The notes under the pieces: generated by a model
What the model was told of the DNA's origin: nothing
The model's database searches: none
What the model saw: only the letters and a program-made list of their open reading frames with translations
Part shown: one piece after another, positions 3,566 to 39,070 of the stretch
How the letters are laid out: every line of letters begins with the position of its first letter
Position numbering within the stretch: position 1 is the first letter of the stretch
Source of the DNA: a virus
Taxonomy: Duplodnaviria > Caudoviricetes
Reading direction: 5' to 3' (one strand)
Length of the DNA: 64,000 nucleotides
Virus record (IMG/VR): IMGVR_UViG_3300031555_004297
Program-made: the position numbers and the translations under genes

Positions 3566-5770
3566 TTAACCGTTAGCCTGTTGACCTTGAGCCTGTTGTT
3601 GATTTTGCTGATTATTCTGAGCATTGCCCTTTTCAGCTTTAGCTTCTGCAGCAGCCTGTTCTTTACTCATATAAGATTTAGCATGAGCTCTAATCAGCTG
3701 ATTGCATTCGCTGTAGATGAATCTGGCAGCAGTAAGCTTTGCAAGAAGAATATCCTTAAGGCATTCGATATAAACCTTGGAGTTATTCTGCTTCTTGGCT
3801 TCACCTTCGCCACCCTTAGTATCACCATCAGCTGCTTCAGGACCATTAGCAATATCCATTTCATTAAACCATCTATCGTAGAGAACAGAGTAGAACATAG
3901 ACTCCTGCTTAGCATCTCCAGATGCTGCATTGTTATCTCCACCACCCTGATTAGCATTTTGCTGTCCAGCATTATTGTTAGTCTGAGCAGTATTATTTAC
4001 ATTGATATTAGGTCTAACTGCCTCTGCTCCAGCTTTCTTAGCTTCTTTCTCAAGCTCAGAAAGCTCCTGTTTAATCTTAGAGAAGAATGCATGAGGAGCA
4101 TCCATGAACTTCATGATGTTATCCTTAGCACCATTGAGTTCCTGAGTATTATATTTTACAGGAGGATACTGATCTGTAGGCATAGAAGCACCATAGTAAG
4201 CTTTACAGTAATCAGAAATGGTAATACCATCTTCCCACTTTACGGGTCTCTTGCCACTACTAGCTTTAGAGGCAAATCCTGTAAGGAAATGCGTCTTAAA
4301 CATAGCAGCTTTATCTTCTTCATTCATAGTTGCAGGGTTAAACGAGATATGACGAGATTCTTGCATACGAGCAAGACCATCGAGAATATTACCTGTCGAA
4401 GAGACCTCTGCAATCTTGAAAGGATTCTTAATTTGAGCAGCATACTTCTTCATAAATGCTGCATTAGGACCATGCTTATCCTGAAGATCATTGATAAACT
4501 TGGTTACAAATTCTTTTACGCGCTTGATAATGTCCTGAATAGCATTAGCAAGCTTATTGATTTCAGCTTCCTGCATAGCTTGAAGCTTGCGGAATGTATC
4601 ACTAGGAATAGCATTCTCACTCCAGATAATAGCTTCTTGAACAGCCATAGATCTACGAGCTTCATTGATAACCTGATTGAAGCAATAAGCCTCAGTTGTC
4701 AGTTCAAGATCCATCCATTCAGTACGATTGAAGTCTCTGGGGTCTTCATTAGCAAATAGAGTATCACTAGTAAAGAGCTCTCCATGAATTGTACTGGATT
4801 CATGCTTAGTATTAGACAAGCTATTAAGTACAGCTGTATAATATTTAATAGCTTTGACCTGCTGATTGAAATTCTGTCCAAGGAACCAAGTCCAAGACTC
4901 GATAATAATCTGATAATAATGAATGAGCTTAGAAGCTTTTGTTACATTTTCAGGTTTCAATGCCGGAGCTCTTGTTTCGAGTTTAACTTTAAGAGATTCT
5001 AATCTTTTTGTCTCATCGTCTGTATATTTTGAAATCTCTTTATCGGATTTTAATCCTCTATACTTGATATTAGTATAGTAATTAATAAAGTTATCTCCAG
5101 TTGTATTTCTGATTTCATCTCTTACAACATCTGTCATTACAAATTGCTTAAAGCTCTTAGGATCAATAACAGGATTAGAGTAGGAAGGCGAGTCGATGGC
5201 TTTCTTAATGGATCTATGCAATGCAGTATATCTCATTTTAAATATAGATTCATCTACTTCACCATAATCATTGCCATTAAGCAAAATTTCAATAGCAGAA
5301 GAAATTTCTCCACAAGCCTGATAAATCATATTAGAATCCAATTTGGACCAATCAACTACATGATAGAACCTAAGCTCTTGAGTTTTCTTTAAAAACTCCT
5401 CATATGTTGTAGATTTCTGCGCTTCTTTCTGAGCTTTATCTGCTTCTTCTGCCATTAACTTAAAGCCTTTTCCTCGAATCATATTAATAAATTTTCTAAT
5501 AAAGTTAATGATAGATTCAATAAGTTTAGAAAGCATATCGACAGCTTTAGAAACTAATCCTTCTGAGAGAACTACATCTGCAGATTCATTCAAAGCTGAT
5601 TCTTTAAGAGCTCTATAATATGCAATATTATATTCATTTTCTGCTTCTTGGCATTCTTCGTTAAGCTGAAGCAAGCACTCAAGATATGTTTCAGGAGTAC
5701 GAGCCATCTCAGCAATAGAGTAAGAAGCATTATCGTTTTTACTTAAAAGAGAAGATGAACGATAAATCAT
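3566..5770 (-). CDS. inner head protein with two tandem paralogous domains
   Basis: 734 aa; LKES, LNES, VLSE, KHES and KQES protease-like sites; two amphipathic helices (LIESIINFIRKF; IQDIIKRVKEFVTKF); late promoter 5804-5815. Confidence 0.6.
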   Translation of the reverse strand: MIYRSSSLLSKNDNASYSIAEMARTPETYLECLLQLNEECQEAENEYNIAYYRALKESALNESADVVLSEGLVSKAVDMLSKLIESIINFIRKFINMIRGKGFKLMAEEADKAQKEAQKSTTYEEFLKKTQELRFYHVVDWSKLDSNMIYQACGEISSAIEILLNGNDYGEVDESIFKMRYTALHRSIKKAIDSPSYSNPVIDPKSFKQFVMTDVVRDEIRNTTGDNFINYYTNIKYRGLKSDKEISKYTDDETKRLESLKVKLETRAPALKPENVTKASKLIHYYQIIIESWTWFLGQNFNQQVKAIKYYTAVLNSLSNTKHESSTIHGELFTSDTLFANEDPRDFNRTEWMDLELTTEAYCFNQVINEARRSMAVQEAIIWSENAIPSDTFRKLQAMQEAEINKLANAIQDIIKRVKEFVTKFINDLQDKHGPNAAFMKKYAAQIKNPFKIAEVSSTGNILDGLARMQESRHISFNPATMNEEDKAAMFKTHFLTGFASKASSGKRPVKWEDGITISDYCKAYYGASMPTDQYPPVKYNTQELNGAKDNIMKFMDAPHAFFSKIKQELSELEKEAKKAGAEAVRPNINVNNTAQTNNNAGQQNANQGGGDNNAASGDAKQESMFYSVLYDRWFNEMDIANGPEAADGDTKGGEGEAKKQNNSKVYIECLKDILLAKLTAARFIYSECNQLIRAHAKSYMSKEQAAAEAKAEKGNAQNNQQNQQQAQGQQANG

Positions 5771-35762: not shown

Positions 35763-36578
35763 ATGCTTACACCAGTTTTAAATCCTTTATATGAGAATTT
35801 AAAGAAAGAGATAAAGCAATATGAGATAAATGAGCAATTATCATTTGATGAAACGCTCCAAGAATTAAGAAAGGACAAAGAAGATAATATTTATTCTATT
35901 TCTGGTCCAGATAAATATACTGGATCTGTATTTAGATCTAATAACTGTGGAGATTTTATGGTTACAGAATATTTCAATTATGATAAAATAGCCATAGTAT
36001 TTATGAATAGCGGATATAGAATGCTTGCTAGAGCTAATAATATCAATAAAGGTGAAGTCAAAGACCCTTATGCAAAATCTATTATGGGAGTTGGAAGTAT
36101 TGGAGTTGGCCCTTATAAAGTTGATGGTTCTCCATTTGAACGAATGATCTATTCTAGATGGAGAGGAATATTAGACAGATGCTATGTAAAGAAAGAACGA
36201 CGAAAAACAGTTCATTTTGAATGGCACAATTTCCAATACTTTGCTGCTTGGTTCACAGCAGAATTCTATTTGGTCCCATACAACACAATGTATGACATGG
36301 TAGTCGATAAGGATGTTCTAGTTCCAGGAAACGAAGAATATGGTCCTTATAGATGCCTGATACTCCCTAACTTTATAAATGCAAAAGTTCAGCTAAAAGA
36401 CTTCGAAATCGACAGAATTGAACGCCTTCAGAGCGGTACCATGACACAGTTTGAGATATTAAAGCTTTTTAAATATAAAGAAGAGAAAGAAGCCCGTATA
36501 AGATCCATGACGGAGGAATATCAAAATATTTTACCGCCGCATATATTTTTGGCAATTAAGAACTATAGAATGTTTTAA
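35763..36578 (+). CDS. free-standing HNH-like homing endonuclease family protein
   Basis: SD GAAAGGAG; YSRWRGILDRCY, EWHNFQYFAAWF and VDKDVLVPGNEEYGPYRCLILP motifs of phage HNH-like nucleases. Confidence 0.7.
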   Translation: MLTPVLNPLYENLKKEIKQYEINEQLSFDETLQELRKDKEDNIYSISGPDKYTGSVFRSNNCGDFMVTEYFNYDKIAIVFMNSGYRMLARANNINKGEVKDPYAKSIMGVGSIGVGPYKVDGSPFERMIYSRWRGILDRCYVKKERRKTVHFEWHNFQYFAAWFTAEFYLVPYNTMYDMVVDKDVLVPGNEEYGPYRCLILPNFINAKVQLKDFEIDRIERLQSGTMTQFEILKLFKYKEEKEARIRSMTEEYQNILPPHIFLAIKNYRMF

Positions 36579-36685
36579 GCTCTCCAAGATTTTCCAAAAG
36601 TCCTAAATGCACGTGCTTCAAGCGATATTATAATTTAAAAAGGAGTCAACTACTAAATAATTCCAATTAAAAGGAGGAATTTAAT

Positions 36686-36823
36686 ATGATTAAAATTCGT
36701 AACACCCCCCCCCCATGTCAGATTAGCGTAAAATCTTTCACGGGGCTCTCTTCCCGAGAGGTAGTTGGGGAACACAAATCAAATGATGTTAACCACATTT
36801 CAAAGAGGGGAGGTGTCCTGTAA
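36686..36823 (+). CDS. 45-aa leader peptide with a C10 tract, coupled (TAATG) to the DGR target gene
   Basis: late promoter 36648-36659; SD AAGGAGG; MIKIRNTPPPCQ...GGVL; stop 36821-36823 overlaps the ATG at 36823. Confidence 0.65.
   Translation: MIKIRNTPPPCQISVKSFTGLSSREVVGEHKSNDVNHISKRGGVL
36705..36714 (+). repeat. C10 homopolymer (candidate slippage tract)
   Basis: ten consecutive C in an AT-rich genome. Confidence 0.9.
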
Positions 36824-38223
36824 TGGGTCAGGCTTTAATTTCGCGTGGTGGTGGAGTTGGTGGTGCAGCAAAAGCTAAGGTGGAGATTATTGCTCCTCTT
36901 GGCGCAACACTTACGATATCCCAAGGCGATGTTGTCTTTACTAGAGAAGTAGAATCTTCTCCTGTGGAGATGAGCCTTGGGTATGGCGTTTGGACAATTT
37001 CTGCGTCCGGCGCTGCAACTAAAACCATCGATATTGATGTATTGAAGGTGTATGAAGTGAATGTAAGAGATGTAACTTATGGTATCAGTATTGATATGAG
37101 CAACGGCGCTCCTGCCGATGCTGTTACATATACTGATGATGCAGTGGGTTACTCCGCCCTGAGTTGTAACGATTCCACAGGTGCTTGTGATTACGGCAGC
37201 TGGGAAGGTGCAATTACAGGGATAATTGGATGTAAGCCTTGTCTTTATAAAGACGGTGCTCGTGTTGCATATCTCAATCCGAACAATTATGCTCAGCTTG
37301 AGAATGGCGGTGCCGCAGATATTACTTCCGGCAATGCTGGTGAAGTAATGGTTGAATTTAAGAAGACTTGGTATAAGTATGCAGTTTCTGGAGATACTTT
37401 GACTTTCCAGGTTGCCAACTACGATAGAACTGCAGATGGATTTGTCTGTTCTGCATTTAAGTCGAATGATGGCACTGCTACTGTAAAAGATTTTATGTAT
37501 TTCGGTGCTTATGAGGGCTATTCTGAAGGTGGAGATGATAAGTGTCATAGTTTGAGCGGTAAATCCGTTTGGAACAATAACTACTGGTCTTATTCTACTT
37601 TCAGAGATATCTGTAAGGCATTTGGCGCTAGTTATGGTATGGAAGACTGGGTTAAGAGATATTATATTCTCGGTTTGCTCATGCTTGTTACCAAGACTAG
37701 AGGTATTCAGGCCGCAATTGGAGATGGAAATGTCAATTCTGGAGATTTAATTAGTTCCGGATCTATGGATACTAGAGGCTTGTTCTATGGTATTAACGAT
37801 GATGGAAACACTGGCGTTAAAGCATTCGGAATTGAGCATCTCTGGGGTAATACTTATAGTTGGTGTGATGGTATCATTACTCTATCTGAATCGACTATTG
37901 GTCTTAAGGAGTGTGCTCCTTATAATGATAGTGGAGAAGGATATACTTCTGTTGCTGATGGAGCTACTAGAGGTTCATGGCAATATCCTACAAAGATGAC
38001 TCCTGTTCTTGGAGGAGCAGCAGTTGTAGCATCTACAACTCAGTCAGATTCTAACATTGGCTGGTGCGATGGCGTGTGTGTCGATGACTGCTCTGGCTAT
38101 GTTGCACAGGTTGGCGGCCACTGCAGCGCTGGTATTGGGGGTGGTGGCCCCTTCTGCGTCGTTATCGACTACAGCCCCAGCGACGGCAACGGCTATTGTG
38201 TGGGGCGGCTCGTTTCCGCCTAA
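36823..38223 (+). CDS. DGR target protein, receptor-binding/tail-fibre tip protein with C-terminal C-type lectin (CLec)-like fold
   Basis: 466 aa; GEVMVEF, YFGAYEG, FGIEHLWGNTYSWCDG and VGG...GPF...VGRL motifs; 3' end matches the TR. Confidence 0.9.
   Translation: MGQALISRGGGVGGAAKAKVEIIAPLGATLTISQGDVVFTREVESSPVEMSLGYGVWTISASGAATKTIDIDVLKVYEVNVRDVTYGISIDMSNGAPADAVTYTDDAVGYSALSCNDSTGACDYGSWEGAITGIIGCKPCLYKDGARVAYLNPNNYAQLENGGAADITSGNAGEVMVEFKKTWYKYAVSGDTLTFQVANYDRTADGFVCSAFKSNDGTATVKDFMYFGAYEGYSEGGDDKCHSLSGKSVWNNNYWSYSTFRDICKAFGASYGMEDWVKRYYILGLLMLVTKTRGIQAAIGDGNVNSGDLISSGSMDTRGLFYGINDDGNTGVKAFGIEHLWGNTYSWCDGIITLSESTIGLKECAPYNDSGEGYTSVADGATRGSWQYPTKMTPVLGGAAVVASTTQSDSNIGWCDGVCVDDCSGYVAQVGGHCSAGIGGGGPFCVVIDYSPSDGNGYCVGRLVSA
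38069..38223 (+). repeat. DGR variable repeat (VR)
   Basis: 155 nt, ungapped against 38594-38748; 26 mismatches, all opposite TR adenines. Confidence 0.97.
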
Positions 38224-38246
38224 TCCCTCGCCGAGTCAGGGGTGGT

Positions 38247-38386: not shown

Positions 38387-38908
38387 ATGATTAAATTTAT
38401 TAATAACACTTGTATTTTTCATAAGATGAATAAATGTATACAGAATAAAATTGTTGTTTGTAAACTTACTAACTATTTAAATAGATCATGCAAACACATC
38501 GTTTCGTATTTGAATAGAACTAGTAAATTTATTCATAAGAGTGCTGGACGATGGCATCTTCTAGGGATAACGGAGAATCTCGTTCTGCGGGGTATGGCGT
38601 GTATGTCAATGACAACTCTGGCTATGTTGCACAGGTTGGCGGCAACTACAACAATGGTATTGAGAATGGTGGCCCCTTCTACGTCAATATCAACAACAAC
38701 CCCAACAACAACAACAACAATTATGTGGGGCGGCTCGTTTCCGCCTAAACCTATTCTGGACAATAGATCGATCTTGTCTATAGATCAAGCATTCTCGAGA
38801 GTGTTTTCTATTGCGGATAACTCCGATTCATCGAGTGTTACCAGTGTATATCTGAACTCTTTCTTGACTTCGAATTACAGGATGACTAAGAAGCATTGTA
38901 CAACATAG
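38387..38908 (+). CDS. uncertain 173-aa ORF reading through the TR
   Basis: strong SD AAGGAGG at 38371-38377, 9 nt before the ATG; no recognisable fold. Confidence 0.3.
   Translation: MIKFINNTCIFHKMNKCIQNKIVVCKLTNYLNRSCKHIVSYLNRTSKFIHKSAGRWHLLGITENLVLRGMACMSMTTLAMLHRLAATTTMVLRMVAPSTSISTTTPTTTTTIMWGGSFPPKPILDNRSILSIDQAFSRVFSIADNSDSSSVTSVYLNSFLTSNYRMTKKHCTT
38594..38748 (+). repeat. DGR template repeat (TR)
   Basis: AAC/AAT-rich copy of the VR (16 AAY codons), upstream of the RT gene. Confidence 0.97.
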
Positions 38909-39070
38909 GTGAATTCAACTCCGTTGAACCTTACCGGAAACGGTAAAATATTGCCCGTCTCGAGGTGGACTAGTAGCTTAAATGTCGAAGATCCGCTAGG
39001 GCTTGAATAGGGTTTAAACCTTATTCTAAAAGCTTAATAGACGAAAGACTTTAAGTCTTAGCAAAATAAA
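38749..39070 (+). ncRNA. structured 3' spacer of the DGR RNA
   Basis: TTACCG-GAAA-CGGTAA (38931-38946), TTCAAC/GTTGAA and AAGACTT/AAGTCTT hairpins between TR and RT. Confidence 0.65.

Follow-up and report, generated by a model that had tools for sequence, protein, structure and literature searches.

Organization of the DGR target locus

The window analysed here, a stretch of 64,000 nucleotides, is part of a linear virus record of 185,246 nt that is ~75% complete and encodes several subunits of a multisubunit RNA polymerase. The runs holding this DNA come from animal gut metagenomes of many studies, and the strong AAGGAGG sites suggest that the host group is Bacillota. At the locus, a short leader ORF containing a run of ten Cs precedes the target gene of a DGR, which is followed by the template repeat (TR) and the reverse transcriptase (RT) gene (Table 1). 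An HNH-endonuclease-like gene (35763–36578, + strand; phrog_2081, E 2e-26) stands before the leader, and is directly upstream of it in most relatives.

Table 1. Features of the leader–target locus (positions in the window).
Feature	Position	Strand	Basis or remark
AR9-type late promoter-like motif AACT-N6-TA	36648–36659	+	predicted start site ~36659, from the motif
Leader Shine-Dalgarno (SD) AAGGAGG	36671–36677	+	sequence; SD before the leader ATG in all relatives
Leader ORF, 45 codons, TAA overlapping the target ATG (TAATG)	36686–36823	+	sequence; homologous leaders of 39–46 codons in relatives
C10 homopolymer, proposed slippage site	36705–36714	+	sole C/G run >5 in the 185-kb record
Predicted hairpin H1, 3' end of the C run and next bases (36711–36724) with 36732–36745	36711–36745	+	RNAalifold consensus
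Off-frame stop TAG (C8/C11)	36724–36726	+	sequence
Off-frame stop TAA (C6/C9/C12)	36729–36731	+	sequence
Predicted anti-SD arm, pairing with target SD region 36807–36821	36740–36755	+	MFE and ensemble models
Target SD region, predicted buried	36807–36816	+	opening cost model
DGR target, 466-aa tail/receptor-binding-like protein	36823–38223	+	phrog_5302 tail protein, E 2e-52; structure matches
Variable repeat (VR)	38069–38226	+	27/158 nt mismatched to TR
Post-VR stem-loop, 11-bp stem, 4-nt loop	38247–38272	+	read from sequence
Template repeat (TR)	38594–38751	+	VR/TR comparison
DGR reverse transcriptase, 501 aa	39095–40600	+	Pfam RVT_1, E 2.9e-13; phrog_1423, E 1.7e-82

The mismatches between VR and TR all fall at TR adenines (27/27), the RT gene is adjacent and the VR sequence is different in other samples, which identifies the gene as a genuine DGR target. 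The AlphaFold model of its product (pLDDT 91.7) gave TaqVP and Mtd as best Foldseek matches (E 6e-7 and 2e-4, respectively), with modest TM-scores of 0.22–0.37. With its C-terminal VR and the CLec/Mtd-like fold of the model, the protein is, as judged from the prediction, an Mtd/TaqVP-like tail protein, and the PHROGs and fold matches point to a role in host receptor binding. The 75%-complete record yielded no match to the avd accessory gene (NF033474 or PF22296); avd is not universal in DGRs.

Several further elements were recorded around the retroelement. The ORF containing the TR (38387–38908, + strand) has an RBS and a start, MIKFINNT, that resemble those of the leader (MIKIRNT); no conservation is seen between its protein and the TR-spanning ORF of the relative L078, which is in another frame. 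Between TR and RT lies a weak Rfam RT-18 match (38932–39010, + strand; 26.8 bits, below the 41.3 cut-off), and a search of the leader against Rfam gave no match. Downstream of the RT gene, an intergenic direct repeat of 83 nt (40645–40727 and 41158–41240) is 81% identical. Elsewhere, in L022, a C9 tract (4476–4484) lies close to the 5' end of a DGR-like RT frame; shortened to C8, it would give 318 open codons after an SD-led ATG, and an upstream frame may also be open.

The motif at the head of the leader differs by one base from the AR9 late promoter consensus, AACA-N6-TA/G (PMC5449584). It was found 34–39 nt upstream in 9/9 leaders examined and, across 122 genes, 16 times in the −40 to −31 bin where 0.8 were expected, a roughly twentyfold enrichment. 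The late promoter proposed in the initial annotation is therefore borne out as a motif, with its activity predicted from sequence. Matches to a sigma-70 promoter were no commoner than in shuffles.

A single long C tract in the leader frame

The leader architecture read in the initial annotation (AAGGAGG, the 45-codon ORF, C10 and the TAATG overlap) proved exact, as did both early stops, TAG with C11 and TAA with C9. Only the leader frames of C7, C10 and C13 reach the target start, and the on frame encodes TPPP over C10. No in-frame fusion of leader and target is obtained at another tract length, as stops intervene at lengths of 5 to 15.

As a simple repeat the tract stands far above the homopolymer background of the 185-kb record, which contains seven C5 and eleven G5 runs and a single C10; C or G runs of 6–9 are absent, and a first-order Markov model predicts 0.0016 C10 tracts. 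The C10 tract is not a product of chance. The pattern of one open frame and two closed early is by itself unremarkable (P ~0.37 in dinucleotide shuffles of the window leader). As this pattern is weak in a single sequence, the DNA upstream of homologous targets was fetched from relatives (44–95% identity), and its weight lies in conservation.

Conservation of the leader in relatives

Nine distinct leaders were compared: that of the window and those of L001, L010, L011, L012, L017, L077, L078 and L360. They have in common the promoter motif, the SD, the C run and an open frame whose end falls at +1 or +8 of the target start. Over the middle of the leader, identity between lineages is mostly 15–66%, and there are indels that are not multiples of three, with the frame still open; the leader of L012 is unrelated in sequence and follows the same logic. 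In each leader the open frame was retained in 8–22% of shuffles; as the lineages are related, the product of these values overstates the case. Wherever the tract of a relative is uninterrupted, the early off-frame stops are present, and the run is pure C in 8/9 leaders, the ninth (L077) having an interrupted tract with two open frames. The distance from leader to target ranges from 112 to 140 nt; taken mod 3 it is 1 or 2 in every case and never 0.

The leader is absent from about a quarter of the family members examined (L016, L019, L052 and L080). In L016, a C10 tract (1852–1861) followed by a G-rich complement lies ~380 nt upstream of the target homolog, and no leader ORF was recognised there. 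Scans with leader motifs found no further relatives; the single match in genome contigs (L363) looks unrelated, and a scan of viral contigs for SD-ATG-poly-C returned, among the matches listed, mostly chance or intragenic tracts.

Length alleles and on/off states

The initial annotation had proposed tract length in related genomes as a check, and this search found C7, C9, C10, C11 and C12 alleles in assemblies. Over 4.4 kb, L076 (C9, off) and L360 (C10, on) share 98.75% identity, and one inserted C distinguishes their leaders; L362 carries the leader of the window with C7, which stays coupled; and the leader of a spare tip has C12 in L078 and C11 in L361. Length thus differs between near-identical genomes, in a few cases that are each an assembly consensus.

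At the DGR target the on state dominates. A single off allele was seen (L076), which is one homopolymer call in an assembly and could be an error. C10 was recovered in the independent runs X9 and X13; the contigs of four runs contained no tract indel, and where a contig of X4 breaks at the tract, a relative that co-occurs there accounts for the break. The RNA run X18 leaves the leader uncovered and is neutral on this point. Gene calls on 33 public contigs include the leader peptide of the window in identical form, in a look-up that can see on alleles only. Other tips present a different picture. Three tip-like genes of L012 have poly-C leaders; among these genes the DGR target is on (C10) and the others are off (C14 and C16), as read from SD-led starts. 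In L078 the DGR target is on and the spare tip off (C11); no leader start was recognised for the 398/415-aa gene of L078/L361. In the 75%-complete record, searches by N-terminal motif, tblastn and phrog_863 found no spare or alternative tip; off may be a dead end in this phage, or alternative tips may lie in the missing quarter.

In related large phages, tip-like genes, some of them paralogous to the target, are gated by in-frame poly-G tracts in mixed on and off states. Record G001, which also has a poly-C leader before its DGR target, contains one tip-like gene with an in-frame G12 that is off (L081, 1501–1512; 13 gives 475 aa) and another with an in-frame G10 that is on (L092, 1501–1510; 510 aa). 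It also has a C11 tract 41 nt before a 219-aa gene (L104, 1501–1511), where no leader ORF was found and the tract possibly acts in promoter spacing. In record G003 (289 kb), five genes (L083, L087, L091, L095 and L101) carry an in-frame poly-G near the start, two being on and three off; three of the five are paralogs of the DGR-target family.

Predicted occlusion of the target ribosome-binding site

The RNA results that follow are equilibrium models on eight related sequences. The target RBS is predicted to be deeply buried: its opening cost is 20.3 kcal/mol, the second highest among 119 genes (mean 8.9, sd 3.6), and the values predicted for relatives are 16.9–22.5 kcal/mol. Three helices compete in this region. 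The first is the pairing of the C run with the target SD; as the initial annotation stated, ACACCCCCCC is complementary to GGGGAGGTGT (36807–36816) with one mismatch. This helix is plausible: it is predicted at −16.5 kcal/mol and has 2 compensatory pairs (15/500 shuffles). In the models it predominates only in RNAs whose 3' end lies close to the target start (85% at 36830, ≤9% from 36850). The second, hairpin H1, has the best covariation: pairs form in 88.6% of cells, 4 cells are compensatory (1/500 shuffles) and the covariation score is 0/500 across the 8 related sequences. The third, the anti-SD duplex, is the strongest (−21.7 kcal/mol); in relatives 81.5% of its cells are paired, without compensatory pairs.

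When an off-frame ribosome was modelled at either early stop, the SD remained 97–99% paired to the anti-SD arm, with an opening cost still at 14.8–16 kcal/mol; the anti-SD helix would be gone once a ribosome has passed 36760. The initial annotation had proposed that leader translation unmasks the target RBS, and had noted the pairing of the C run with the target SD region. The models agree with a buried RBS, but they assign the off state mainly to the separate anti-SD arm: a ribosome terminating off frame sits on the C run, so the C run:SD helix cannot hold the off state.

A candidate heritable switch and its alternatives

Conservation, the predicted burial of the RBS and the length alleles of near-identical phages support the earlier proposal that leader translation gates the DGR target in a length-dependent manner. 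Our preferred reading, to which we give a probability of about 0.7, is an ON/OFF switch that is set heritably by slipped-strand events and read out through translational coupling. With C7, C10 or C13, ribosomes would traverse the leader to its end, opening the anti-SD helix on the way and terminating at the target start, and the DGR-diversified tail tip would be made. At other lengths they would stop 10–17 nt past the run, short of the anti-SD arm, and the tip would be made weakly or be absent. Replication slippage would alter the length of the run and thereby decide which tips are made in a lineage; the sequence of the diversified tip would be set by the DGR. The frames, their conservation and the alleles are observed and the RNA lock is modelled; the rate of switching, its effect on expression and its benefit are what we infer.

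Four other explanations were weighed. Coupling could be constitutive, which we regard as unlikely: the leader would merely open a structured RBS, setting tip dosage or timing, with the C run as a structural arm and length variants as tolerated accidents purged by selection. The strong bias towards on and the lack of a spare tip in the 75%-complete record would fit such an arrangement, as would the presence of the C run in helices with some covariation and the existence of interrupted tracts (L077 and P0109). However, a U opposite the A of the SD would pair better than the C that 8/9 leaders keep, off lengths are the consensus at the spare tips of L012 and L078 and at the target of L076, and in sister phages in-frame poly-G tracts gate members of the same gene family.

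It is rather improbable that the same length switch is read out on the transcript, leader translation averting premature termination or decay, as in pil1 of Streptococcus gallolyticus (PMC3894217), where the precedent lies. An early stop would leave untranslated structured RNA, and because target, TR and RT are on one strand the RNA of TR and RT, and thus DGR activity, could also be affected. Against this, no terminator-like stem with a U-tract occurs in 36650–36900, although the scan may be blind to terminators used by the RNA polymerase of the phage itself. The on-frame stops, moreover, are concentrated at +1 or +8 relative to the target start, which is the signature of coupling: a conserved upstream stop within ~10 nt of the downstream start (PMC3711429) was found in 9/9 leaders.

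We see still less likelihood in a non-heritable rheostat, in which RNA-polymerase slippage or ribosomal frameshifting on an invariant C run would yield a fixed fraction of coupled ribosomes. Most close strains have C10 in their DNA and a hairpin adjoins the run, and CCC-C runs are shift-prone; yet the C7, C9, C10, C11 and C12 alleles of the assemblies are differences in the DNA itself. Either process on the C run may add leak to the off state of a heritable switch. Finally, a polyproline leader peptide sensing Pro-tRNA or EF-P through ribosome stalling has very little to recommend it beyond the TPPP of the on frame, since C7 alleles encode just PP and remain coupled, CCC accounts for only 13% of Pro codons and the PP pairs of long ORFs are never CCC-CCC; by these sequence comparisons the nucleotides rather than the peptide are conserved, and selection is on nucleotides, not prolines.

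A broader form of the heritable switch, which we put forward tentatively and at somewhat less than even odds, is that the poly-C leader serves a clade of large, RNA-polymerase-encoding gut phages as a modular, digital tail-tip selector, with a two-arm RNA lock closed to off-frame ribosomes, and has been placed on the DGR target itself, so that slippage decides whether the hypermutated tip is shown and its sequence is chosen by retrohoming. Off periods would then let DGR variants arise without selection. Any such switch on a DGR target would stack two mutators on one host-range gene. A switch in an upstream ORF leaves the regulated gene intact and is therefore missed by scans for frameshifted genes; contingency loci of phages have been demonstrated experimentally only recently, and mostly inside genes. 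Nothing in the literature searched, which excluded most subscription papers, describes the coupling of a homopolymer leader to a phage gene.

Comparison with known systems

Upstream ribosomes open a buried RBS by melting a masking helix at the MS2 lysis gene and in ermC-type leaders. The present leader would differ from these in its input, which appears to be a heritable change of DNA length and not a ligand or a stalling signal.

The closest precedent for a variable repeat within an upstream leader ORF, as found here, is the pil1 locus of S. gallolyticus, where GCAGA pentamers in a leader ORF and a transcription terminator underlie phase variation (Danne et al. 2014, PMC3894217). In both cases the repeat shifts the ribosome stop, and only the long read-through frames would melt an inhibitory RNA before the gene of a surface structure. 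In contrast to pil1, which lies on a bacterial chromosome and combines pentamers with a terminator, the phage leader has a C homopolymer, a predicted SD-masking helix and a stop overlapping the target start. As the scan found no intrinsic terminator between leader and target, the leader would work like pil1 but is not classed with it.

Phage contingency loci are treated in PMC12633550, which cites hypermutable poly-G tracts in receptor-binding proteins of Fletchervirus, phages of Campylobacter (Sorensen et al. 2021). As these are presented there, the likeness is a G/C homopolymer of 7–11 nt controlling a phage host-recognition protein, a role that is probable for the present target. In that account the Fletchervirus tract lies within the gene; here the tract is outside the coding frame of the target, the distance to which is never 0 mod 3, and the frameshift occurs in a separate upstream ORF that leaves the target frame untouched. 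The same paper notes a poly-G tract in the methylase gene of Bordetella phage BPP-1 (PMC12633550).

The retroelement resembles the BPP-1 DGR (mtd-avd-TR-brt) and Thermus TaqVP in its C-terminal VR, adenine-specific differences, post-VR hairpin, RT and the predicted Mtd/TaqVP-like fold. Unlike in BPP-1, no avd was found and the target has a homopolymer leader. The conserved feature is real, and the switch that it would form, a variant of homopolymer phase variation, is probable.
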